DNA of 64,000 nucleotides from Candidatus Niyogibacteria bacterium (GTDB taxonomy: Bacteria; Patescibacteriota; Minisyncoccia; HO2-45-28): the NCBI GenBank assembly GCA_016181935.1, contig JACOYI010000005.1, forward strand, positions 595 through 64,594, written 5' to 3'. Below the pieces are notes generated by a model. The model was not told where the DNA came from, ran no database searches, and saw only the letters and a program-made list of their open reading frames with translations. Shown one piece after another: positions 4,099 through 55,026 of the stretch (its first letter is position 1; each line of letters begins with the position of its first letter). Made by a program: the position numbers and the translations under genes.

Positions 4099-4258
4099 TT
4101 TCATGAATTCAGGAAATCATTTTCTGGAATACGCTTGAATTTCCAGCGAAATTCAAGCTCCATCCTCGGCGCTTTGTTTTTTGATTCAGCAGAAAGTGTA
4201 ATCAAAAAACACCCTGCAAAGCGCCTGTGGGGCTTCCAAAAATAATTTCCTGAATTTA
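4099..4258 (+). repeat. Structured palindromic intergenic element, family A, copy 1 (about 160 bp, MITE/structured-RNA-like)
   Basis: Terminal inverted repeats TGAATTCAGGAAATCATTTT / AAAATAATTTCCTGAATT. Internal hairpins GCTTGAATTT..AAATTCAAGC and GGCGCTTTG...CAAAGCGCC. Second copy at 52936-53097 with compensatory substitutions. Confidence 0.6.
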
Positions 4259-4270
4259 TTTTATAAAACT

Positions 4271-5248
4271 ATGCCAAAAATTTTCATCACGCGGCGGATT
4301 CCGGAAGCGGGAATTCAAAAATTACAGGCAAAAGGATATGAGGTCGTTATCAGTCCCGAAGACCGGGTGCTTCGGAAAGAGGAAGTGCTCGAAGCGCTCC
4401 AAGGCCAGAATTACGATGCGGTGCTCTGTTTGCTGACGGATAAGATCGACGGCGACATATTGGACGCGGCCGGAAAACAATGCAAGATTTTCGCGAATTT
4501 GGCGGTCGGGTTCGATAACGTCGATTTGAAGGCCGCCGAGGAGCGGAGGATCGCGATCACAAATACGCCCGGCGTACTCACGAATACCGTAGCGGAACAT
4601 ACATTTGCGCTGATGCTTGCCATTGCGCACCGCGTTTGCGAAGCGGACCGATTTACGCGCGGCGGGCATTATGAAGGATGGGCGCCGATGCTTCTTTTGG
4701 GGAACGATCTTTCGGGGAAGACCATCGGCATCGTCGGGTTGGGGCGCATCGGTTCGCGCGTCGCATATCACGCGGTCAAGGGATTCGATGCAAAAGTGAT
4801 CTATTATGATGTAGCGAGAAACGAAGAGTTCGAAAAAGAGTACGGCGCGATTTACAAAGCAAACGTAGAGGATGTGCTTCACGAAGCGGATTTTGTTTCG
4901 ATTCACGTGCCGTTGTTGGATTCCACGCGGCATTTGATGAATGCGGAGCGGTTCCGGATGATGAAGCCAACGGCGTATCTGGTCAATACCTCCCGAGGCC
5001 CGATCGTGGATGAAGCGGCGCTCGTGAAAGCGCTCAAATCAGGCGTCATCCGCGGCGCTGCGCTTGACGTGTTTGAAAATGAACCCGCGCTCGCGTCTGG
5101 GCTTGTAGAATGTGAGAATGTGATTTTAACCCCTCATATTGCGTCTGCCACCGAAGAGACGCGCTCTGCCATGGCCGAACTGGCGGCCGATAACATCATC
5201 GCGGCGCTCGAAGGCCAAGCCCCGCCAAATCTAGTGAAGAAGAAATGA
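4271..5248 (+). CDS. D-isomer-specific 2-hydroxyacid dehydrogenase (glyoxylate/hydroxypyruvate reductase-like)
   Basis: 325 aa. NAD-binding GxGxxG (GIVGLGRIGSRVA) and catalytic R/E/H region typical of the GyaR/PGDH family. Confidence 0.85.
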   Translation: MPKIFITRRIPEAGIQKLQAKGYEVVISPEDRVLRKEEVLEALQGQNYDAVLCLLTDKIDGDILDAAGKQCKIFANLAVGFDNVDLKAAEERRIAITNTPGVLTNTVAEHTFALMLAIAHRVCEADRFTRGGHYEGWAPMLLLGNDLSGKTIGIVGLGRIGSRVAYHAVKGFDAKVIYYDVARNEEFEKEYGAIYKANVEDVLHEADFVSIHVPLLDSTRHLMNAERFRMMKPTAYLVNTSRGPIVDEAALVKALKSGVIRGAALDVFENEPALASGLVECENVILTPHIASATEETRSAMAELAADNIIAALEGQAPPNLVKKK

Positions 5249-10686: not shown

Positions 10687-10882
10687 GCCGCCTTAGCTCA
10701 ATTGGCAGAGCAACACTTTTGCCCGCCCGCCTAAGACGCGCCGTCCTAGCTCAATTGGCAGAGCAACAGTTTTGTAAACTGTAGGTTCCGGGTTCGACCC
10801 CCGGGGACGGCTCAACAATCGGCGCTAAGGCGCGTCGGGCGCGGTAAAGTGAAGGTTCTCGGTTCGACTCCGAGAGGCGGCT
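10687..10882 (+). tRNA. Interrupted tRNA gene: 5' half about 10687-10722 and 3' half about 10843-10882, separated by an insert containing tRNA-Thr(UGU). Anticodon ambiguous (GGU-Thr or UGC-Ala depending on the junction)
   Basis: Acceptor GCCGCCT pairs 7/7 with AGGCGGC 190 nt away. D-arm, anticodon stem (ACACT/AGTGA) and T-arm (CTCGG-TTCGACT-CCGAG) are all present in the two halves. Confidence 0.5.
10740..10812 (+). tRNA. tRNA-Thr (anticodon UGU)
   Basis: Hand-folded cloverleaf: acceptor GCCGTCC/GGACGGC, D-stem GCTC/GAGC, anticodon stem ACAGT/ACTGT, loop TTTGTAA, T-arm CCGGG-TTCGACC-CCCGG. Confidence 0.85.
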
Positions 10883-19431: not shown

Positions 19432-20667
19432 ATGAGTTCTAAAAAATTGATTTATCTGGATCACGCGGCGACCACCCCGGCGGACCCCGAGGTGGTTTTG
19501 GCGATGGAGCCGTATTGGCGCGATGTCGCTGCGAATCCGTCGTCCCTGCACCGGTGCGGACAGGCGGCCATCAAAGCCGTGGACGAAGCGCGGGAGGCCA
19601 TCGCAACATTCATGGGCGCCGCACACCCGCGCGAAATCATTTTTACGGGTTCGGCGACCGAAGCGAATAATCTTGCGATTCGCGGCATTGTCAAAAACTC
19701 GGTTTTTGACAAACCACATGTCGTTACGACCGCGATCGAACACGCGTCGGTTTTGGAAACGGTTCGTGCGCTTGCCCGCCAAAATTTTGCTTCGCAAAAC
19801 TTAGGCGGGCGAGAACAAACGGGCACGATCGAAGCGACGATCCTGCCGGTCGGTAGCGATGGCCGCGTATCGCCGGATGCGGTTCGAGCGGCCGTAAAAG
19901 AAAATACGGCGCTTGTCAGCATCGGCTATGCGAACAACGAGATCGGCACGCTCCAGCCGGTCGCCGAAATCGCGAAGGTGATTCGGGAGTTCCGAAAAAC
20001 CCAGTCTCCGCGCCTCCAGCCTCCAGCTTCTAGTCTCCAGCATCCAGTGTTTCATACCGACGCGGTTCAGGCGGCGCCGTGGCTGGATGTGGACGTAAAA
20101 AAACTCGGCGTCGATATGATGACCATTTCCGCGCACAAAATGTACGGCCCGAAGGGCGCGGGCGCGCTGTATGTAAAAGACGGAATACAGCTCGAGCCCG
20201 TTATCTACGGCGGAGGACAGGAATACGGATTGCGTTCCGGAACGGAAAATGTTCCGGCGATCGTTGGATTCGCAAAAGCCGCAGAAATGACGGGGGAATG
20301 GAAAAAAAGCGCGGCGAATATCGGCGTCATCGAAAAATTTCGCGACGATGCATGGAAAGAAGTACAGGCGATCGCACCGAATGCGGAATTGAACGGACCT
20401 GTCAAAAACCGTCTGCCGAACAATCTCAATATTTTTATTCCCGATGTCGATCCGGAAATTTTTCTGGTTGCACTTTCGGAAGACGGCATCTGTGTGTCGT
20501 CGGGCTCGGCGTGCGCCGCGCGCGCGCTCGGCGAATCGCATGTCATCACCGCGATCGGCAAGGGGGGTAACGATGGATGCCATTTGCGCATCACGTTTGG
20601 CCGGCAGACGACAGAGGACGATATCCGCGCGCTCGTCGCGGCAATGAAAAAGCGCCTCTCGGTTTGA
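19432..20667 (+). CDS. iscS: Cysteine desulfurase (IscS/NifS type) carrying an in-frame heptamer-repeat insertion
   Basis: MSSKKLIYLDHAATTP start with GAGAGGGG RBS. PLP Lys (SAHKMYGPKG) and catalytic Cys (SSGSACAA). Extra segment QSPRLQPPASSLQHP is encoded by (CTCCAGC)n at 20003-20049. Confidence 0.85.
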   Translation: MSSKKLIYLDHAATTPADPEVVLAMEPYWRDVAANPSSLHRCGQAAIKAVDEAREAIATFMGAAHPREIIFTGSATEANNLAIRGIVKNSVFDKPHVVTTAIEHASVLETVRALARQNFASQNLGGREQTGTIEATILPVGSDGRVSPDAVRAAVKENTALVSIGYANNEIGTLQPVAEIAKVIREFRKTQSPRLQPPASSLQHPVFHTDAVQAAPWLDVDVKKLGVDMMTISAHKMYGPKGAGALYVKDGIQLEPVIYGGGQEYGLRSGTENVPAIVGFAKAAEMTGEWKKSAANIGVIEKFRDDAWKEVQAIAPNAELNGPVKNRLPNNLNIFIPDVDPEIFLVALSEDGICVSSGSACAARALGESHVITAIGKGGNDGCHLRITFGRQTTEDDIRALVAAMKKRLSV

Positions 20668-20673
20668 GAGGCG

Positions 20674-21819
20674 CTACGATGCTTTGGGGTTTTTCCACAG
20701 AAAACGGAGTGTTTCGATATCTTCGCCGGGTTCGGCGCCGATATCGGGTTCCGATTTTATTTGTTCGATCAATTCACGAGTGGCGGAGTCCCGGATCATG
20801 TGTATATGCGTGAAATATGCGTGCTCCGGCGGCGGTTCCTTGCGTTCGATTCGTTCGAGTTTTTCCGGCTCGGATTCGATCGCCGGCGGGGCATCGATGG
20901 GGAACCATCGGGCCTCCCGCGTTTGAAGCGGTCCTTCGGGGGATCGCGCTTGTGTTTTCGGGTTGCCATGATTCATTGCAACGCAGAAAAAAATCGTCCG
21001 AAAATAGGGCCGGCTTTCCTCCTCGTTTTTTCTCATGAGTTCGGCTTTGATCTCATCCGGCGCCGGATCGTGACCGAGATATTCTTTCAATGGTTCGATG
21101 ATCGAGTGCCAACGCGCTAAAACATGAACTGCGGTTTCGCTCTGCTTTGCGAGCAAATCCCGATTGGTCTCGATCTCGTTGGCAGTCGGTTCGCGGCCGA
21201 GCTTTTGTTTCAGTAAATCGGTCGGATCTCGCCTTGCGCGCCAGTCCAGATTGGTCTCGATCTCGTTGGCAGTCGGTTCGCGGCCGAGCTTTTGTTTCAG
21301 CCGACCCGCCGATTTTATGATCCGGCTGATCTCCCGGTCCGGATTCAGGACAATGCCCTCTTTGCATTGCGTAAGGATCCGGATTTTTCTTTTGCTTCCG
21401 GGGATCGGAACGTCTTCGCACCACGCCAGAAATCTGATCCTAACCCTGAATTCTTCGAATGCCTCTCGGATCGCGGTGCATTCGGGCGGTTCGGTCCATT
21501 GATTGCCGGATCGTTCGAACAGTTTTTTATACTGACCGCGGATGGCCGGATCGAGATCCGCAATAAAGGCGGAAACATCAACGGCGCTGAACGATTCGGA
21601 GCGTCCGCCGATGAGCCCCCAACCCTCCGGTTTTCCGGCCGGATACGGCAGATTGTATACGCACGCCACGTTTTCAAAGGAAGAATTCACGATAAAGTCG
21701 ACAACGTGATGGTCTCCTCGTCTCACGGTCTTTTCGAAAAGATCCAGCCGTGCGTCTTCGATCGGGATCATTTCGTCCAATAGAGTGAGGGGGGAGGCCC
21801 CTCTGCTCACATACGGCAT
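20674..21819 (-). CDS. Hypothetical protein (381 aa) with a tandem 17-aa repeat containing a sigma-70 region-3-like LGREPT motif
   Basis: ATG 21819 with GAGGAGGG RBS. Perfect tandem DNA duplication around 21160-21300 encodes LKQKLGREPTANEIETN twice. Confidence 0.6.
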   Translation of the reverse strand: MPYVSRGASPLTLLDEMIPIEDARLDLFEKTVRRGDHHVVDFIVNSSFENVACVYNLPYPAGKPEGWGLIGGRSESFSAVDVSAFIADLDPAIRGQYKKLFERSGNQWTEPPECTAIREAFEEFRVRIRFLAWCEDVPIPGSKRKIRILTQCKEGIVLNPDREISRIIKSAGRLKQKLGREPTANEIETNLDWRARRDPTDLLKQKLGREPTANEIETNRDLLAKQSETAVHVLARWHSIIEPLKEYLGHDPAPDEIKAELMRKNEEESRPYFRTIFFCVAMNHGNPKTQARSPEGPLQTREARWFPIDAPPAIESEPEKLERIERKEPPPEHAYFTHIHMIRDSATRELIEQIKSEPDIGAEPGEDIETLRFLWKNPKAS

Positions 21820-21901
21820 GGGTCGGCCCTCCTCAGCTAGTTGACGAACAATACTCGTTTCGGCTATTATTATATGGATATAGAGATTTAATGTCAAGCC
21901 T

Positions 21902-23143
21902 ATGCGAATGGAAGAACTGACAAAGACCCAGCTGGTGCTTTTGGTGCTTCTCGTGAGCTTTGTGACATCGCTTGTCACGGGGATCGTTTCTGTTACGCTC
22001 GTGAATCAGGCGCCCGCGCAAGTGACGCAGACCATCAACCGCGTTTTCGAAAAAGTGGTTCAGGAAAAAGAAGTGGACCTGTCCAAACTTCAGGCGCTGG
22101 TATCGAACCCGGAGGATCTCGTGACAAAACTCGTGGACGCGACGCTTCCTGCGGTGGTTTCGGTCATTGCGACCAAAGATGTTCCGGTGTTCGAGCGGTA
22201 TTTTGTGAATCCATTCGGAAACGACGATATTTTCGGAGATTTTTTGATCCCGCAGTATCGTCAGAAAGGAACGGAGTCGCGTCAAATTTCATCCGGCACC
22301 GGCTTCTTTGTGTCGGAGGATGGGTTGCTGGTAACAAATAAGCACGTGGTTTCGGATGTGGCCGCCGAGTATTCGGTTGTCATGAATGACGGACGCAAGC
22401 TCGCGGCAAAAGTATTGGCGCGCGATCCGCTCCAGGATATCGCGATCTTGAAAGTTGACGGAACATTTACGTATATCGGGCTTGCGGATTCCGATACGAT
22501 CAAAGTCGGACAGACCGTTGTTGCGATCGGCAATGTGCTCGGAGAATTCCAAAATACGGTTTCTTTGGGCGTTGTTTCCGGTTTGCACCGCTCCATTATG
22601 GCCGGCGGTCCGGAAGGGGTAGAAACATTGTCCGAGGTCATCCAGACGGATGCCGCGATCAATAGGGGTAATTCCGGCGGGCCGCTCCTGAATCTTGCGG
22701 GGCGCGCCATCGGCATCAATACGGCGGTTGCGCAGGGCGCAGAGAATGTCGGCTTTGCGCTGCCTGCGAATTTCATCCGCAAGACGCTCGAAGATGTTCG
22801 TGAATTTGGAACAGTTCGGTACGGCTATGTGGGCGTGCGGTATGTCATTGTCACCCCCGATATTCAAACGGCGCGAAAATTATCGGTGGATCACGGGGCG
22901 CTCATCGAAAAAGGCGCGAATGGCGAGGTTGCGGTGCTCGCGGATTCCCCAGCGGCAAAAGCAGGGCTTCGCGAGGGCGATATCATTTTGTCGTTCGACG
23001 GGCGCGATATCACGAAAGACGATACGCTTGCCGCGATGATCAATAAAAAGCGGATCGGCGATGCCATCGAATTGACAATTCATCGCGATGGCGGCGTCGA
23101 GACGGTGACATTAACGCTCGAGGAACGACCCGCCAATTTGTAA
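21902..23143 (+). CDS. htrA: HtrA/DegP-family serine protease with PDZ domain
   Basis: 413 aa. N-terminal TM anchor. Catalytic triad contexts (TNKHVV; D; GNSGGPL) and a C-terminal PDZ. Confidence 0.85.
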   Translation: MRMEELTKTQLVLLVLLVSFVTSLVTGIVSVTLVNQAPAQVTQTINRVFEKVVQEKEVDLSKLQALVSNPEDLVTKLVDATLPAVVSVIATKDVPVFERYFVNPFGNDDIFGDFLIPQYRQKGTESRQISSGTGFFVSEDGLLVTNKHVVSDVAAEYSVVMNDGRKLAAKVLARDPLQDIAILKVDGTFTYIGLADSDTIKVGQTVVAIGNVLGEFQNTVSLGVVSGLHRSIMAGGPEGVETLSEVIQTDAAINRGNSGGPLLNLAGRAIGINTAVAQGAENVGFALPANFIRKTLEDVREFGTVRYGYVGVRYVIVTPDIQTARKLSVDHGALIEKGANGEVAVLADSPAAKAGLREGDIILSFDGRDITKDDTLAAMINKKRIGDAIELTIHRDGGVETVTLTLEERPANL

Positions 23144-23187
23144 TTTTTAGTTTTTAATTTTTATATTTTAAATTTTATATTGAAACC

Positions 23188-25863
23188 ATGCCCCCATTCG
23201 GAAATTTTACCGTAAAAGCCCAAGAAGCCGTGCGCCGCGCGCATGAGCTGGCGATCGAGCGCGGGCAAAACCAAGTGGATGCTCTGCATTTGCTCGCGGC
23301 GTTGGTTTTGCAGGATGACGGGATCGTGAGTGCGATCCTTGAAAAAATGGACACGGATCCGGATGAAGTGCTCGATTCCGTGATGGCATCCGTGGATTCC
23401 AAGAATCGGACGAATGTTTTGGAAGCGCGGGGCGCCTCGCAGATGTTTCTCTCGGTGGAATTCGGGAGGGTGCTGGAGGCGTCGTTCAAGATCGCGCAGG
23501 CAATGAAAGACGATTATATATCGACCGAACATTTGTTTTTGGCGCTGTTCGACGTTTCGTCGCGCGCAAAAAATATTTTGGCATCCGCGCGCATTGAACG
23601 GGCGCAGGTGGAGCGGGCGCTCGAAGAGGTGCGCGGATCGGGCCATGTGACCGATCTTGAACCCGAAACGAAAATGAAGGTGCTTGAGCGGTACGGCCGG
23701 AATCTGACGAAAATGGCGCGTGAGGATAAATTGGATCCGGTGATCGGCCGCGACGAGGAGATCCGCCGTATCATGCAGATCTTGTCGCGTCGGACGAAAA
23801 ATAATCCCATTGTGATCGGGGAAGCGGGCGTCGGAAAAACGGCGGTCGTCGAGGGGTTGGCGCGCAGGATCGCCGCGGCTGATGTTCCGGATACGCTGAA
23901 AGACCGCGAACTCATCGCGTTGGATCTCGCGTCCCTTGTCGCCGGCACCAAATACCGCGGCGAATTTGAGGAACGCCTCAAAGCCGTGATGCGGGAAGTC
24001 GAACGCTTGGAGGGCAAGGTCATTCTTTTCATTGATGAGCTGCATACGATCGTGGGGGCGGGCGCCGCCGAAGGGGCGATCGATGCCGCGAATATCCTGA
24101 AACCGGCGCTTGCGCGGGGGGAGCTCCATGCGATCGGCGCCACGACCCTTAAAGAATTTCAGCGTCATATCGAAAAGGACCCTGCGCTCACGCGCCGGTT
24201 CCAGCCCGTGTACGTTGAGGAGCCGTCCGCCGATGACGCGGTGGCGATCCTAAGAGGCATCAAAGAGCGCTATGAGATCCATCATGGCGTGCATATCACG
24301 GATGCGGCGATCGTTGCGGCGGTTGGACTGTCCGCGCGCTACATTACGGACCGTTTTTTGCCGGACAAGGCCGTTGATTTAATTGACGAAGCGGCCTCCG
24401 CCTTGCGGTTGGAACTCGATAGCATGCCGGGAGAACTTGAAAAATCGCGCCACCAGATCACGCGTCTTGAGATCGAAAAAGAGGCCCTGAAAAAAGAAAA
24501 GGGCAGCTCGTCTAAAACGAAGATCCGCAAAGCACAGCTCGAGATCGATGAACTTCGGGAAGAATCGTCCGGACTCGAATTGAAATGGAAAAACGAAAAA
24601 GAGGCGATCACGAACATCCGTCAGTTCAAAAAAGACCTCGATGGCTTGAAACTGGAGGCCGATCAGGCGGAGCGCGCCGGAGACCTGACGCGCGTTGCCG
24701 AGATCCGGTATGCGCGGATTCCCGGGATCCAGAAACAACTGGCCGTGGAAGAGGCGCGTCTTAAAAAATTGCAGACGGCGCGGAGCATTTTAAAAGAAAA
24801 AGTGGAGGCCGAGGACATCGCCGGGGTTGTTGCGCGCTGGACCGGCATTCCGGTGATGAATTTGCTCGAAGGCGAGGCCAAAAAACTTCTTCGCATGGAA
24901 GCGGACCTCGCGCGCCGCGTGGTGGGTCAGGACGATTCGATCTCAAAGATCGCGCATGCGGTCCGCCGCTCGCGCGCGGGCATCGGCGATCCCCTGCGTC
25001 CGATCGGTTCGTTCATGTTTTTGGGCCCGACGGGCGTGGGAAAGACGGAACTCGCGCGGCGTCTTGCCGAGTTTTTATTCAACGACGAGCGTGCGCTCGT
25101 GCGCGTGGATATGTCCGAGTTCATGGAAAAACATTCGGTGTCCAAATTCATCGGTTCGCCTCCCGGCTATGTCGGTTACGAAGAAGGGGGGCAGATCGCG
25201 GAATTGATCCGTCACCGGCCGTATGCCGTGGTGCTGTTCGATGAGATCGAAAAGGCGCATCCGGATGTGTTCAATATGATGCTTCAAATTTTGGATGACG
25301 GGCGTCTGACCGACGCGAAAGGCCGCAAGGTGAATTTTAAAAACGCGGTCATCATCATGACATCGAATGTCGGTTCGGAGTTCGCGCGGGAACTCGGCAA
25401 GCTCGGTTTTGAAACCGGGGAGACCGCAGAAGGGGCAGGCAGCAAACATCTGAAAGACCGGATAAAAGCGGCGCTTGTCGAGCGGTTCCGTCCGGAATTT
25501 TTGAATCGGCTGGACGAGGTCATCATTTTCAACGCGCTCGCGAGAACGGACATCGAGAAGATCGTGGATATTCAACTGGCCGACGTCCGGCGCCGGCTTG
25601 CGGAAAAAGGCATCGGCTTCTCGATCGCGGTCGGCGCAAAAGCGCGTCTGACGCAAGAAGGATATGACCCGAATTTCGGCGCACGTCCCCTGAAGCGTCT
25701 GATCCAGACGAAAATTTTGAATGCGGTGGCCGAACGAATGATCGCGGGCGCCGCCAAGGCCGGCGATCAGCTGATGGTGGACGAGAAGAGCGGCGAATTA
25801 GAGGTCAGCGTAAAGACGGAATCCCGCGCGGCAACTCGCAAAAAGAGGAAAATCGTGGTATAA
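23188..25863 (+). CDS. clpB: Chaperone ClpB (AAA+ disaggregase)
   Basis: 891 aa. Two Walker A motifs (GEAGVGKTA; GPTGVGKTE), a coiled-coil M-domain between NBD1 and NBD2, and the Clp N-domain. Confidence 0.95.
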
Positions 25864-25949
25864 CTCTGGAGAGCTGGAAACCGGATCGCTGGGAGCCAGA
25901 AAATTTAGTGTCCAGCAATCCAGTTTCCGGCGCCGAGTATTCTAGGGTT

Positions 25950-36825: not shown

Positions 36826-37935
36826 ATGAAAAGTCAAGATGTGCCGAAAGTATTCGTCGCCCTGTCGGGTGGCGTGGATAGCTCCGTGGCGGCCGCTCTG
36901 TTGCGAGAGCGGGGATTTGATGTGGTCGGCGCGCATATGAAGTGCTGGATTCCGGGAGCCGAAAACTGGGGGCTGGAAGCTGGAAATTGTGGAGCGGAAC
37001 GTGATGCGGAGGATGCGCGCCGTGTCGCCGAGGCGCTCGATATCCCGTTTTATGTATTCGATTTGGAGAAGGAATACCGCGAGCGCGTGTTTGATTATAT
37101 GCTCCGCGAATATGGAGCGGGCCGTACGCCGAATCCCGATGTGCTTTGCAATAGCGAGATCAAATTCGGCGTTTTTTTGGAGAAAGCGCTCTCGCTTGGC
37201 GCGGACTATATTGCGACGGGGCATTACGCTAGAAAAAAGCTGGAAGCTGGAAGCTGGAAGCTGGAAATTGCAAAAGATTTAAACAAAGATCAATCCTATT
37301 TTCTGTGGCGTCTTACGCAGGATCAGTTAAGCCGTACGATATTTCCCATCGGTGAATATACCAAACCCGAGGTGCGGGAACTTGCGCGAAAATACCATTT
37401 GCCGACCGCGGAAAAAAGGGATTCGCAGGGGCTTTGCTTTGTGGGGCATCTCGATTTTCACGATTATTTGCGAAGCGTATTGCCCAAGAAAACGGGCGAC
37501 GTGGTGACGACCTCCGGCAAAAAAGTGGGGGAGCATGACGGCGCGCATTTTTATACCATTGGCCAGCGGCATGGGCTCGGCATCGGCGGCGGGACGCCGT
37601 ATTATGTGGCGGCAAAAAACCTCGAAGCGAACACGCTGACGGTTGCGGAAGGCATCCATGATCCCGAATTATATGTAAAAGAAATTCATGTTGTGGATGT
37701 GAATTGGCTCTCCGGCACTGCACCTTCCAGCCTCCAGTCCCCAGCCTCCGACCTCCAGTATGACGCTCGCATCCGCTACCGCCAGCCGCTTCAAAGGTGC
37801 CACATCCAATCACTTGGAAACTCGGTTTCCAAGTTGCGGGTTGTGTTTGATGCGCCTCAGCGCGCGGCGACATCCGGCCAGTCCGCGGTGTTTTACAAAG
37901 GCGGCGAACTTTTGGGCGGGGGAATCATCGCTTGA
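36826..37935 (+). CDS. mnmA: tRNA-specific 2-thiouridylase MnmA, with three in-frame heptamer-repeat insertions
   Basis: PP-loop SGGVDSS, catalytic Cys contexts. (AGCTGGA)n / (CYTCCAG)n tracts at 36970-36987, 37238-37268 and 37723-37758 encode extra LEAG../SSLQSPAS.. segments. Confidence 0.85.
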   Translation: MKSQDVPKVFVALSGGVDSSVAAALLRERGFDVVGAHMKCWIPGAENWGLEAGNCGAERDAEDARRVAEALDIPFYVFDLEKEYRERVFDYMLREYGAGRTPNPDVLCNSEIKFGVFLEKALSLGADYIATGHYARKKLEAGSWKLEIAKDLNKDQSYFLWRLTQDQLSRTIFPIGEYTKPEVRELARKYHLPTAEKRDSQGLCFVGHLDFHDYLRSVLPKKTGDVVTTSGKKVGEHDGAHFYTIGQRHGLGIGGGTPYYVAAKNLEANTLTVAEGIHDPELYVKEIHVVDVNWLSGTAPSSLQSPASDLQYDARIRYRQPLQRCHIQSLGNSVSKLRVVFDAPQRAATSGQSAVFYKGGELLGGGIIA

Positions 37936-45698: not shown

Positions 45699-47045
45699 AT
45701 GGAATCGCCGAATGAAAAAAAAGTTCCGGTCCGCGATATCATGCCCAATGTCTCCGCAAATGTGCGGAGCGATCACTCTGTGGAATCTTCCGGATCCGCC
45801 TCTGAATTGCCTCGGCGGGCGCGTGCGTCAAGGGCGGAGTTTTTCGCGCGAAAACCCGAACGTCTGCCTGCTTCAGATATGCTAGAAACCCCTCGCCGAT
45901 GGGGCTGGATGGGGGGATTCCGCTTTCCGTGGAAGATCACGGCCGCAAGCATCGGATTTCTTGCGGCGGCGGGGCTTGCGGTCAGCGCTTTTTCAAAGAC
46001 CGTGGTCATCATTACGCCGCGTGCCGAACAGGTCGCTGTCGTCATGACAGTATCGGTCGGCGGATCCGCGGGCCTTGCCGCTCAAGTAGCGAGCGCGGAG
46101 GAAACTCTCAGCATGCGCGCCAAATCGAGCGGAATGGAGGATATTTCGGAACGCGCCACCGGCCGCATTCTTATCTATAACGCGTATAGCGCCCTACCTC
46201 AGGCGCTTGTCCGCCGGACGCGGTTTGAAACTGCGGATGGCAAGGTGTATCGCCTCACCGAGGCCGTTACCGTTCCGGGCGCAACGGTCCTCGATGGGAA
46301 GATCGAACCGAGTTTTGTGGAAGCCGCCGTCGCCGCCGATCTGGCGGGCGAGGCCTCGAACATCGGGATCACGGATTTTACGATCCCCGGATTCAAAGGG
46401 GGCGCAAAATACGAAAAATTTTATGCGCATTCCAAAACGCCGATGACCGGCGGTTTTGCGGGAAGAACCGCCGTTATTCGGGAAGAAGATGTCCAGAACG
46501 CAAAACAATCGCTTGAGCGCGATCTGAAAAATACACTGACAACGCGTTTGAATGAGCGTTTGGGGCAGGGGTTGATCATTCCGGCGGATGCGGCCACCTA
46601 TACGATCGCCGTTTCTTCCGTGGAACCTGCGATCGGAGAACGCGGCGATGCCTTTGATATCCGCGTCACCGGCCAGGCGGCGGCGCTGGCGGTCCGGCGG
46701 CAAGATTTGGAAAAACAATTGCTGGAGCGGTACGGAAAAACCGCACTCCTGTCTCATCCGGAGATCCGCAACTTCGGCGACCTTGCGGTCCGCGCAACAG
46801 CGTCCGACCCCGTAAAAAAGGCGATGACGCTTTCCGTGACGGGCGATATGCAGTTGGTGTGGGGCGTGTCCATGGATGAATTAAAGAAAGGACTCCTGTC
46901 TGCGGCGGGCGTTGCGGGGCGCAACGCGGTTTTCGCTTCCTATCCCCAGATCGAGCGGGTCCGCGTTTCCTACCGGCCGAGCTGGTGGCGGATTTTTCCC
47001 CGATCCGAAGATAAGATCGTCGTGGAGGAGGATCTGGAACTCTAG
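45699..47045 (+). CDS. Hypothetical membrane-anchored protein (448 aa)
   Basis: Single TM (ITAASIGFLAAAGLAVSAF) after a charged N-terminus. Large extracytoplasmic domain with no recognised motifs. Confidence 0.55.
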   Translation: MESPNEKKVPVRDIMPNVSANVRSDHSVESSGSASELPRRARASRAEFFARKPERLPASDMLETPRRWGWMGGFRFPWKITAASIGFLAAAGLAVSAFSKTVVIITPRAEQVAVVMTVSVGGSAGLAAQVASAEETLSMRAKSSGMEDISERATGRILIYNAYSALPQALVRRTRFETADGKVYRLTEAVTVPGATVLDGKIEPSFVEAAVAADLAGEASNIGITDFTIPGFKGGAKYEKFYAHSKTPMTGGFAGRTAVIREEDVQNAKQSLERDLKNTLTTRLNERLGQGLIIPADAATYTIAVSSVEPAIGERGDAFDIRVTGQAAALAVRRQDLEKQLLERYGKTALLSHPEIRNFGDLAVRATASDPVKKAMTLSVTGDMQLVWGVSMDELKKGLLSAAGVAGRNAVFASYPQIERVRVSYRPSWWRIFPRSEDKIVVEEDLEL

Positions 47046-47125
47046 AAGCTGGGAAACTAGAAAGCTAGAACCTGGAAAATCCAGTCCCCAATATCCAGAA
47101 ATCTAGTTTCCAGAGTTCCAGATTC
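47040..47125. repeat. Array of TCCAG/CTGGA pentamer repeats in the spacer upstream of the infA promoter
   Basis: At least 7 TCCAG/CTGGA units at 7-10-nt spacing (…CCTGGAAAATCCAGTCCCCAATATCCAGAAATCTAGTTTCCAGAGTTCCAGATTCCAGG…). Confidence 0.45.
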
Positions 47126-47133
47126 CAGGGGGT

Positions 47134-49961: not shown

Positions 49962-50007
49962 AAATGAAAACTTTTTCTATTTTAGATTTTAAATTTTAAT
50001 TTGAAAC

Positions 50008-50355
50008 ATGCGGCATAAAAAAATCGGTCGGAAATTCGGGCGGGAGCGCAACATCCGCAAGGCCTTTTTGAAGGGGCTGGTGCGTTCATTTGTTTTACAC
50101 GGCCGGATCGAGACGACCCTGCCGCGCGCCAAAGAAACCCAGCGTCTGGCCGAGCGACTGATGACGGCCGCGCGAAAAGGGACGCTCGATGCGCGGCGCC
50201 GCACTGCGCGCGTATTGGGGCCCGAGGAGACGAAGAAACTTTTTGACATGGCGCCCAAATACGCCGTGCGTCCCGGCGGTTATACGCGCATCACCAAGGT
50301 CCGGACGCGTAACCACGACAGCGCGACCATGGCCGTGCTCGAATTCGTCGACTAA
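50008..50355 (+). CDS. rplQ: 50S ribosomal protein L17
   Basis: MRHKKIGRKFGRERNIRKA...TTLPRAKE. Confidence 0.9.
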   Translation: MRHKKIGRKFGRERNIRKAFLKGLVRSFVLHGRIETTLPRAKETQRLAERLMTAARKGTLDARRRTARVLGPEETKKLFDMAPKYAVRPGGYTRITKVRTRNHDSATMAVLEFVD

Positions 50356-52354: not shown

Positions 52355-52935
52355 GGACCGATTCTGATTTGGACGCTGATTTGGACGTCTCACGTCCAAG
52401 TAAAAAAATGGGGGAGGAGGAGTTGGAAGTGGTGGAAACGGGGGATGGCGAGGATTTTGGAACGCGGGACGTGGCGGCCGCATTGAAAAAAGCAAAGCAC
52501 GAATTGAGCGAATGCCGGAAAAAAGCGGAGGAATATCTCGACGGCTGGCAGAGAGCGAAAGCGGATTTCATCAATCGCAGAAAAGACGAGGAGAAGGAGC
52601 GCGAAGCGATGGCGAAGTTTGCGAACGAAAAACTTGTGAAGGATGTCCTGAATATTCTTGACAGCTTGGAAATGGCGGCAAGGGCAGGGGATTCCGGAGT
52701 CGCGAATATCCATCGCCAGTTGGCACAGATCCTGAAGGGATACGGAGTGGAAGAACTATCGGCTGTCGGCGCCGCGTTCAACCCCGCAGAGCACGAAGCG
52801 ATGCTGGAGGAAGCGGTGGAGGATGAATCGAAAGACGGAATGGTGCTCGAGGAATTGCAGAAGGGCTACCGGATGCGGGACAAAGTGATTCGCGCGGCAA
52901 AAGTGAAAGTCGGGGTTTATCAAAAATCAAAATAA
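52351..52935 (+). CDS. grpE: Nucleotide exchange factor GrpE
   Basis: 194 aa. Coiled-coil N-terminus and conserved C-terminal beta-domain (GYRMRDKVIRAAKV.V). Start overlaps the hrcA stop. Confidence 0.85.
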   Translation: MRTDSDLDADLDVSRPSKKMGEEELEVVETGDGEDFGTRDVAAALKKAKHELSECRKKAEEYLDGWQRAKADFINRRKDEEKEREAMAKFANEKLVKDVLNILDSLEMAARAGDSGVANIHRQLAQILKGYGVEELSAVGAAFNPAEHEAMLEEAVEDESKDGMVLEELQKGYRMRDKVIRAAKVKVGVYQKSK

Positions 52936-53097
52936 ATTCATGAATTACGAAATCCATTTTAGAGTACGCTTGAACGCCCAGCGGCATTCAAGCTCCGTCC
53001 TCGGCGCTTTGCTTTTTGGCTCGCTTCGCGAAATTTTAGCCAAAAAGCACCATGCAAAGCGCCTGCGGGGCCTCTAAATGGACTTCGTAATTCATTC
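52936..53097 (+). repeat. Structured palindromic intergenic element, family A, copy 2
   Basis: Same architecture as 4099-4258: TIRs TGAATTACGAAATCCATTTT / AAATGGACTTCGTAATTCA, conserved GGCGCTTTG...CAAAGCGCC stem, inner hairpins with compensatory changes. Occupies the grpE-dnaK spacer. Confidence 0.6.
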
Positions 53098-53115
53098 ATT
53101 AACTAACGAAATATT

Positions 53116-55026
53116 ATGGCAAAAATATTAGGCATTGATTTGGGAACGACGAACTCGGCGATGGCGGTCGTGGAGGGCGGCGAGTCGCGCATCATCGAGA
53201 ACCGCGAGGGCGTGCGCACCACGCCGTCCATTATCGCGGTCTCCAAAGCGGGCGACCGGCTGGTGGGACTCTTGGCCAAGCGCCAAGCGGTGACGAATCC
53301 GAAGAATACGATTTACTCGGTCAAGCGGCTCATCGGTCGGCGATTTGACGACGAGATGGTCCAGCGCGACAAAAAATTGTTGCCGTATGAGATCCGCAAG
53401 GCGGACAACGGCGGCGTGGAGGTCAAAGTGGGTGACACATGGCTCCGCCCCGAGGAAATTTCGGCGATGGTGCTCCAGAAATTGAAGGAAGACGCCGAGG
53501 CGAAATTGGGTGAGAAAATCACGGAAGCCATCATCACGGTGCCCGCATATTTTGATGACGCCCAGCGGCAAGCGACCAAGGCGGCGGGCGAGATCGCGGG
53601 GCTCACGGTGAAGCGCATCATCAACGAGCCGACGGCGGCCGCACTCGCGTACGGACTCAATAAAAAGAAAAACGAGAAAATTGTCGTCTACGATTTCGGT
53701 GGCGGCACGTTCGACGTGTCGGTGCTTGAAATTGGCGATGATGTCATCGAGGTGAAAGCCACCGACGGTGATACGCATTTGGGCGGTGATGATTTTGACC
53801 AGAAAATTATCCAGTGGGCTATTGGCGAATTCAAAAAAGAATCGGGAATCGATGTGTCAAAAGACACATTGGCACTTCAGCGATTGAAAGAAGCGGCGGA
53901 GCGCGCCAAGCACGAATTGTCGGGCGCATCCGAGACCGAAGTGAACATCCCGTATTTGTCGTCCGACGAATCGGGTCCGCGGCATTTCCTGAAAAAAATG
54001 ACGCGCACCGACCTCGAAAAACTGGTGGGCGAATATATCGAGCGCTCCATCGAAATCACCCAGCGCGCGGTGAAGGCGGCGGGATTTGCGCTCACGGATA
54101 TGAACGAAGTGATTTTGGTCGGCGGCCAGACGCGCATGCCCGCGATGCAGGACGCGGTCAAGAAATTGTTCGGCAAGGAACCGAACAAGTCCATCAATCC
54201 GGACGAGGTGGTGGCAGACGGCGCGGCGGTGCAGGGCGGCATCATGATGGGCGATGTGAAGGATGTGCTTTTGCTTGATGTGACGCCGCTCTCACTCGGT
54301 ATCGAGACGCTCGGTGGCGTGTCCACCAAAATCATCGAGAAAAATACGACGGTTCCGGTATCGCGGACACAGGTGTTTTCGACCGCGGCTGACAATCAGC
54401 CGCAAGTGGAAATCCATATTTTGCAGGGCGAGCGCGAAATGGCGAAGGATAATAAAACCCTCGGGAAATTCGTTTTGGATGGCATTCCGCCCTCCCCGCG
54501 CGGCTTGCCGCAGATCGAGGTGTCATTCGACATTGATGCGAACGGCATTCTGTCGGTAAAAGCGAAGGACAAGGGAACACAAAAGGAGCAATCGGTGCGC
54601 ATCGAGGCGTCGAGCGGACTTTCGAAGGATGATATCGAGAAAATGAAGCGCGATGCGGATGCGCATGCGGAGGAGGATAAAAAGGCGCGCGCATTGATAG
54701 ACGCGAAAAACACGGCGGATAGCATGATTTACGCCGCGGAAAAGGCGTTGCGGGACGCGGGCGACAAAGCGCCGGCCGATGTGAAAAAAGCGGTGGAGGA
54801 GGAATTGGCGAAGCTGAAGGAAGTAAAGGAAAAAAGTACGGACGCGGCGGAGATCGAAAAAGCGGCCGCGGCATTGTCGCAGAACCTCTCAAAAATCGGC
54901 GAGGCGATTTACAACGCTGGAAAGCAGGAGGCTGGAGGGCCGGATGCTAGAAAGACGGAAGACAGCCAGTCCAGTCAAGATGAGCCAAAGGACGTTAAAA
55001 GCGAGGATGTGGATGGAAAGAAATAG
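53116..55026 (+). CDS. dnaK: Chaperone DnaK (Hsp70)
   Basis: 636 aa. [19 protein letters not shown]-terminal acidic tail. Confidence 0.95.

Follow-up and report, generated by a model that had tools for sequence, protein, structure and literature searches.

A genome-specific heptanucleotide repeat family carried mostly within conserved enzymes in a Candidatus Niyogibacteria genome

Heptanucleotide units are described as the most abundant class of long simple sequence repeat (SSR) in many bacteria, and the polymerase footprint together with slippage has been proposed to explain this abundance (Mrazek et al. 2007, as cited in PMC4679880 and PMC4692102). Several families are specific to particular genomes, such as the STRR families of Calothrix and Nostoc, GGGAATC of Xanthomonas, GGGGAYT of Nostoc, and TAACTGA of Beggiatoaceae (PMC4692102; PMC4679880). 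The described families occur in both orientations, form inverted pairs, and are biased to within 50 bp of stop codons, with 7-11% of copies intragenic in Xanthomonas and 32% in Nostoc (PMC4692102); intragenic TAACTGA repeats lie at the protein periphery, and a post-transcriptional role has been proposed for that family (PMC4679880). We now report such a family, with the common unit TCCAGCY (RGCTGGA on the opposite strand), from a 64-kb stretch, hereafter the window, of a 79.7-kb contig in a Candidatus Niyogibacteria (Patescibacteria) metagenome-assembled genome (MAG). Its tracts lie in iscS, encoding a cysteine desulfurase, in mnmA, in dnaK, and in two intergenic spacers. They are a new example of the known dispersed heptanucleotide repeats, not a new kind of system, and are unusual mainly because most copies are inside conserved enzymes of a compact genome.

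The likeness to the dispersed heptanucleotide families extends to several features. There is one 7-nt unit per genome, arranged head-to-tail in short arrays at many loci; both orientations are used, inverted pairs capable of forming stem-loops are present, and arrays lie at or over stop codons and in some cases within open reading frames (ORFs). Presence and length may also differ between related genomes: the closest relatives are without the arrays, and a distant Patescibacteria contig, L125, carries one that is 12 nt shorter. Unlike in the described families, the unit is TCCAGCY, the genome is a small one of the Patescibacteria, and the arrays are short (2-7 units). Placement differs further, in that five of the seven arrays are intragenic, as against the minority shares in Xanthomonas and Nostoc, and in that copies occupy the core, not the ends, of conserved enzymes. 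Mostly intergenic placement is, however, a description of the known cases and not a defining feature of a heptanucleotide family.

Rickettsia palindromic elements (RPEs), attributed to Ogata et al. in 2000, are reportedly discrete elements of 100-150 bp with conserved sequence, found in frame at surface positions of conserved proteins, which are not destroyed by them. The IscS tract and the third mnmA tract are likewise in-frame insertions at surface positions of conserved proteins, and the intergenic copies here, together with inserts in relatives, are palindromic. Unlike RPEs (mentioned also in PMC1779305 and PMC10969869), the intragenic tracts of the window are tandem arrays with a single arm, varying in length and lacking defined ends. 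A further point of comparison is neuO of Escherichia coli K1, in which an intragenic 5'-AAGACTC-3' repeat allows full-length protein only if the copy number is divisible by three; copies range from 3 to 53, with 20 the commonest (PMC13001214). Our tracts share with neuO a 7-nt tandem repeat in coding sequence whose unit count sets the frame, although here only at mnmA site 2. The neuO gene is an accessory one for surface modification, borne on a phage, with its perfect copies at the 5' end and with demonstrated switching, whereas the tracts in the window have at most 4.3 perfect copies and lie mid-gene in housekeeping genes. Our searches of the literature turned up no account of in-frame repeats, heptamer or palindromic, from Patescibacteria.

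Both enzymes that carry most of the tracts could be named from several lines of evidence. The gene at 19432-20667 is an intact ORF for a class-V aminotransferase (Pfam Aminotran_5); the best solved-structure matches of its product are cysteine desulfurases (E 2e-87), it is of NifS/IscS type, and an identical database protein (P0121) has the NCBI name cysteine desulfurase. The gene at 36826-37935 is an intact ORF for MnmA, with all three MnmA Pfam domains, matches to solved MnmA structures at E 6e-96, and an identical database protein (P0001) that NCBI names MnmA. A preliminary description of this DNA had located four tracts, of (CTCCAGC)n type or its complement, in these genes, one in iscS and three in mnmA; all four were confirmed at their coordinates by direct reading of the sequence and by Tandem Repeats Finder. 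They are in frame, and the translations given earlier were correct (QSPRLQPPASSLQHP in IscS; WGLEAG, KLEAGSWKLE, and SSLQSPASDLQ in MnmA).

Our census, which covered the window and admitted slightly degenerate cores, found seven arrays with the common unit (Table 1), five of them intragenic and in frame (one in iscS, three in mnmA, one in dnaK) and two intergenic and inverted, with both orientations represented. The arrays span 22-97 nt, and the order of units varies between the seven loci. The two intergenic arrays correspond to those already reported as pentamer-core arrays in spacers. The phenomenon is thus confined neither to two enzymes nor to this genome: further members of the family occupy the DnaK tail and form two stop-codon hairpins, and TCCAG-type arrays are found in MurD, MurG, DnaG, and other genes of other phyla.

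Table 1. Coordinates and unit composition of the seven TCCAGCY-family arrays in the window
Feature	Coordinates	Strand	Units and remarks
Heptamer array in iscS	20000-20049	+	CCCAGTC TCCGCGCC TCCAGCC TCCAGCT TCTAGTC TCCAGCA TCCAGTG; TCCAG core on sense strand
mnmA site 1	36966-36987	+	ACTGGGG GCTGGAA GCTGGAA; CTGGA core on sense strand; peptide NWGLEAG
mnmA site 2	37237-37266	+	Perfect (AAGCTGG) x 4.3; peptide KLEAGSWKLE
mnmA site 3	37726-37758	+	TCCAGCC TCCAGTC CCCAGCC TCCGACC TCCAG; TCCAG core on sense strand; peptide SSLQSPASDLQ
Degenerate array in dnaK (C-terminal tail of the product, low-complexity)	54916-54954	+	GCTGGAA AGCAGGA GGCTGGA GGGCCGGA TGCTAGA; dnaK is 53116-55026
Intergenic inverted array pair	25866-25930		CTGGAGAGCTGGAAACCGGA ... 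TCCAGCAATCCAGTTTCCGG; CTGGA-type units left, TCCAG-type right
Inverted arrays upstream of infA	47032-47128		Left arm CTGGAA/CTAGAA units; right arm TCCAG/TCTAG units

The repeat is far in excess of expectation in the window: TCCAGNNTCCAG occurs 8 times as against 0.04 expected, a count that 0 of 100 shuffles reach, and CTCCAGC occurs 13 times as against 4.35 expected. An unbiased lag-autocorrelation scan over lags 3-12 yielded segments above the null maximum at lag 7 only. With a looser cut-off (at least 18/28), lag 7 again showed the largest excess, with 5 segments compared to a null mean of 0.5 and a null maximum of 2, while lags 9, 11, and 12 were also marginally above their own null maxima. 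Of these lag-7 segments, three correspond to the iscS tract and to mnmA sites 2 and 3, and two to AT-rich heptamers located in spacers. The five-of-seven intragenic share is roughly proportional to the coding density (~86.5%), so that in this compact genome most members of the family would come to lie inside genes. The presence of three arrays within one 1.1-kb gene, mnmA, is more clustering than expected (p about 0.002, a rough estimate). We also considered, and rejected, a reading of TCCAG as a DNA-uptake sequence: with 140 copies, the pentamer ranks only 168 of 512 and shows no general over-representation, such excess as it has being supplied by the arrays alone. A search of all arrays against Rfam matched no family.

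In iscS, Tandem Repeats Finder delimits the tract as 20012-20047, with period 7, 5.1 copies, and 75% matches. In the AlphaFold model (mean predicted local distance difference test score, pLDDT, 86), it falls in a loop (residues 191-205, pLDDT about 63) that connects helix 177-190 to strand 206-210. This loop is longer by 14 aa (42 nt) than in the closest relatives (P0122, P0124, and P0125), by 10 aa than in PDB 9wer, and by 4 aa than in P0127, and it is an indel hot spot, measuring 14-59 aa where it could be delimited among the 120 homologs listed.

The same IscS carries a second in-frame insertion, at 19771-19813 (residues about 115-129; ASQNLGGREQTGTI), which is without counterpart in all 22 aligned relatives, is modeled at pLDDT < 50, and occurs once in the window. 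Its DNA forms a strong hairpin, CTTGCCCGCC...GGCGGGCGAG (free energy, dG, -15.8; z -3.84).

The three mnmA tracts differ in regularity and in setting. Site 1, with two exact GCTGGAA units and one degenerate unit, is in a loop modeled as disordered (residues 45-54, pLDDT < 50), and its segment of 14 aa has the same length as in P0002, P0003, P0007, and P0022. Site 2 is the sole perfect tract (period 7, 4.3 copies, 100% matches, score 60 in Tandem Repeats Finder) and falls in a confidently modeled beta-hairpin (residues 136-147, pLDDT about 96); it is at the modal length of 17 aa, with no net length change compared to P0005, P0007, and P0011, and its S-W-K-L corresponds to S-Y-K-L in P0007 and P0011. 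By these alignments, the sequence at sites 1 and 2 was replaced with its length unaltered. Site 3, an imperfect period-7 array by Tandem Repeats Finder, is longer by 5 aa than almost all of 26 aligned relatives and is in loop 295-309 of the model, with pLDDT about 70. Of the earlier picture of sequences inserted into surface loops, the insertion thus holds for the IscS tract and site 3 and fails for sites 1 and 2, while the variable, low-confidence loops hold for three of the four tracts, site 2 being the exception.

An origin of site 2 by way of a proto-repeat AGC TAY AAG CTG is doubtful: the protein pattern S-Y/W-K-L is shared, but the P0007 and P0011 codons are AGC TAC AAA TTA, with no proto-repeat; AAG CTT, which is proto-repeat-like, is found at this position in P0002 and P0003 only. 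Sites 1 and 2 (36949-36992 and 37223-37270) are also alike beyond their arrays, with 10 of 17 left-flank positions matching (p about 0.005 per register) and with ATTG following both CTGGAA tracts, in differing reading frames. This likeness hints that one tract may have been copied from the other.

The unit is well suited to coding sequence. Neither TCCAGCT nor TCCAGCC contains a stop codon in any of the six frames, and the three frames of one strand give the same heptapeptide in rotation (SSLQPPA or LEAGSWK). TCCAGCY can survive inside genes because it is stop-free in six frames, which TAACTGA cannot do in its forward orientation (PMC4679880). The G-to-A variant TCTAG does create TAG, which is used as a stop codon at 47043. 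The length of the tract is another matter: as had been anticipated, a change in copy number would shift the frame. We computed that gain or loss of one or two units at mnmA site 2 cuts MnmA to 149-178 aa, and that a change of three units keeps the frame.

Secondary structure separates the intragenic from the intergenic arrays. The former have a single arm each and give no hairpin (dG 0 to -4 kcal/mol, z -0.9 to +1.25); folding is confined to the two intergenic copies. The pair at 25866-25930 starts 3 nt past the clpB stop codon, ends 20 nt before tRNA-Tyr, and folds as a hairpin with dG -13.1 and z -2.25. The larger pair ends before the infA start (47177) and forms a hairpin with dG -19.1 and z -3.92, reached by 0 of 200 shuffles; a 448-aa hypothetical ORF ends within its left arm, from which it takes its final codons and its TAG stop (47043-47045). 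We looked for a T run after these two hairpins and found none. The 448-aa ORF had no match in a Pfam search, and a reading of it as SecY was rejected.

The closest relatives (68-74% identity) lack all four iscS and mnmA tracts, a scan of about 12 kb of their DNA found no such array, and alignment for shared identical segments, as the preliminary description had proposed, found that they share none. At greater distance, L125 (46% GC), in which the order NifU-IscS ... ClpB is syntenic with the window, has a heptamer array of CCCAG type in the same IscS loop (CCCCAAG CCTTTAG TCTCTAG CTCCCAG CTCCCAG), alignable with that of the window. An earlier suggestion that the tracts might be very recent was not borne out, because three of the four are degenerate (75-80% matches); the alignable L125 array also speaks against it. 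Proteins of this species fall into clusters with a single member. A metagenome scan using the site 2 flanks with a variable gap gave 0 matches, and a control 26-mer from the adjoining conserved codons matched only unrelated AT-rich mnmA, so that the species is absent from that metagenome collection.

The most interesting lead of the analysis is a wider pattern across Patescibacteria, in which the permissive loops of IscS and MnmA stay the same while the small repeats that fill them differ from genome to genome. In IscS of the closest Niyogibacteria relatives there is in frame a perfect 45-bp hairpin element, GCCCAAAGGGTAGTCCTTAGGAATCAGAAAAGGACTACCCTTTGGGC (that is, AQRVVLRNQKRTTLW), found twice in P0123 (L121, 513-1745), where one copy is in the loop that holds the tract in the window, and once in P0122 (L124, 4247-5428); we looked for this element in the window and it is absent. 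IscS of P0173 has an inverted GAATC/GATTC heptamer array pair inserted twice (L127, 9473-9533 and 9952-10013; peptide SRSKNKES.xIHDxRFM), and peptides like IHNSKF are in the same IscS loop of P0132, P0150, P0208, and P0212. Large inserts occupy another IscS site in P0126, P0127, P0130, P0184, and P0204, the P0127 insert, the one read at the DNA level, having inverted repeats as its ends. In MnmA, the beta-hairpin after GHYxR, which is the position of site 2, has low-complexity insertions of 27-70 aa in many Patescibacteria (P0002, P0004, P0012, P0013, P0019-P0026, and P0040; L126, 10001-11176). The insert in P0020 holds an inverted repeat, GGCGAAAATTCAGCCCC...GGGGCTGAACCCCGCATTTTCGCC, and is RPE-like.

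We consider that the tracts are probably a genome-specific dispersed heptanucleotide SSR family, which slippage or misalignment generates and from which selection retains the arrays that keep the frame and lie at tolerant sites. The arrays would arise and homogenize at the DNA level, through replication slippage or transient misalignment between neighboring 7-nt units, and would often be seeded at native codons that resemble the unit. Such codons adjoin arrays in mnmA: TGC TGG A (C40 W41) is 20 nt upstream of site 1, site 2 has AAG CTG, and site 3 has xCC CCA GCx. Strand switching may have given rise to the inverted, hairpin-forming copies. Within genes, only net changes divisible by three would survive, and point interruptions would then damp further slippage. 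Judged from alignments and structural models, the intragenic arrays sit where a change in length or sequence should be tolerated, namely three flexible loops, one exposed beta-hairpin, and one disordered tail, and they probably do nothing for the proteins.

Several points weigh against this explanation. Pure local slippage alone leaves unexplained why one unit is found at seven loci and why mnmA has three arrays. The changes of sequence without change of length at sites 1 and 2 call for a conversion-like misalignment instead of simple gain of units, and extra indels must be assumed for the net differences of 15 nt (site 3) and 12 nt (L125 compared to the window), neither of which is divisible by 7.

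A rival explanation is copy-paste spread of an RPE-like, non-autonomous element, whose full form would be the intergenic inverted-array hairpin and which would be written into new sites by templated, microhomology-guided events (gene conversion or template switching), with only in-frame copies in tolerant loops surviving. We regard such spread as possible though doubtful. It would account for one unit at seven loci, three of them in mnmA, and for the hairpin form of the intergenic copies; the flank likeness of mnmA sites 1 and 2 in different reading frames is consistent with it, as are the discrete in-frame elements at the same loops in relatives (the 45-bp hairpin of P0123 and P0122, the P0173 element, and the MnmA palindromes) and the second hairpin insertion of the window's own IscS. 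Yet the intragenic arrays are single-armed and non-folding, their lengths and internal unit order vary by locus, neither terminal repeats nor target duplications were seen, and no enzyme candidate was identified; the flank likeness is itself weak after allowing for the choice of register and for constrained codons. Slightly more tentative is the broader proposal that an RPE-like process operates in Patescibacteria, by which each genome would place its own small repeat, whether a heptamer array (single or as an inverted hairpin) or a perfect hairpin of short length, at a few shared, permissive positions of housekeeping proteins such as IscS and MnmA while keeping the frame. Copying would be templated from other copies instead of arising by local slippage, TCCAGCY being one such family. 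The extension of this proposal in which the perfect mnmA tract serves as an ON/OFF switch of tRNA 2-thiolation is less likely.

Phase variation can also be considered without any such process. Cysteine desulfurase and MnmA cooperate in s2U34 synthesis, and four of the five intragenic arrays are in these two genes. By analogy with neuO, an intragenic heptanucleotide ON/OFF switch (PMC13001214), slippage by 7 bp in (AAGCTGG) x 4.3 might make mnmA and with it tRNA 2-thiolation phase-variable, since truncation by one or two units would be undone by a change of three. However, there are only about four copies, well short of the usual neuO number, and the tract is not of the long hypermutable type; the other tracts are interrupted; mnmA is a tRNA-modification gene, neither accessory nor surface-related; and the family is also found where switching would be senseless (the DnaK tail, the intergenic hairpins, and the essential MurD and DnaG of other phyla). 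Functional cis-elements would be a different matter, with the units as binding sites (for example of a GGA-recognizing regulator) or the hairpins as terminators or processing sites, and with the intragenic copies also regulatory. The two stable intergenic hairpins exactly at stop codons fit this, the same bias being known for GGGAATC repeats (PMC4692102), as does the post-transcriptional role proposed for TAACTGA repeats (PMC4679880). But the mnmA mRNA carries arrays in both orientations, the hairpins have neither a following T run nor an Rfam match, and the arrays are not conserved in the closest relatives. On these grounds both phase variation and a cis-regulatory role are unlikely, in about equal measure. 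Most improbable of all is that the tracts are chance low-complexity sequence, or ancient lineage-specific loops without repeat dynamics: the loop lengths at mnmA sites 1 and 2 do equal those of relatives, but the shuffle and lag statistics contradict it, as do a 30-nt tract with no mismatch, a unit common to seven loci, and closest relatives that lack the segments.

More widely, when one genome of each species was scanned for four TCCAGNN units, at least 120 matches were obtained. Among the matches listed are Bacteroidales, Planctomycetota, Acidobacteriota, Pseudomonas, Alcanivorax (49 units), Chloroflexia, Peribacteria, and others, with units skewed to TCCAGCA, TCCAGTA, TCCAGCT, and TCCAGCC. 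Many of the listed arrays are intergenic, and the four loci that we inspected (L030, L050, L083, and L003) include inverted pairs; long open frames contain 31 of 133 arrays among the matches listed. Five such ORFs compared with Pfam encode MurD, MurG, DnaG primase, a class I/II aminotransferase, and LarC, with the arrays in frame. The in-frame array loci are L028, L047, L107, L109, and L115, the MurD being from Desulfobacterales and the class I/II aminotransferase from Verrucomicrobiia. The notion that the TCCAG core is special across bacteria is unsupported, as control heptamers of the same composition (CTCAG, CACTG) and TCCAG itself each gave at least 120 matches in viral contigs.

Bacteria for which a heptanucleotide repeat family has been described are few, and the present family adds a genome of the candidate phyla radiation to their number, as an extreme case with most copies within conserved enzymes. 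Such tracts are frameshift hazards and a likely source of apparent pseudogenes and of assembly or annotation errors in MAGs. The occupied loops mark positions of IscS and MnmA that tolerate almost any sequence, and the different repeats found in the same loops offer a comparative system for slippage versus copying, a question left open by the TAACTGA and GGGAATC papers.

The window holds several other repeats. The two AT-rich heptamer arrays (AATTTTT / ATTTTAA) are in spacers at 23126-23188, directly upstream of clpB, and at 49965-50017, and are 83% alike. In a dispersed repeat of ~160 nt, 82% identical between its copies at 4100-4260 and 52935-53100, a T-rich run comes after the hairpin GCTTGAAT...ATTCAAGC; a 2-hydroxyacid-dehydrogenase-like ORF (4271-5248) has one copy upstream of it, and dnaK (53116) has the other. 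The intact tRNA-Thr gene (10740-10813) has its 5' half repeated at 91% identity in a partial copy 53 nt upstream, at 10687-10721. Finally, at 21144-21300, an 87-nt tandem duplication (93% identical) doubles the peptide LLKQKLGREPTANEIETN within an ORF on the minus strand (20674-21978) whose product has a weak match to sigma-70 region 3.

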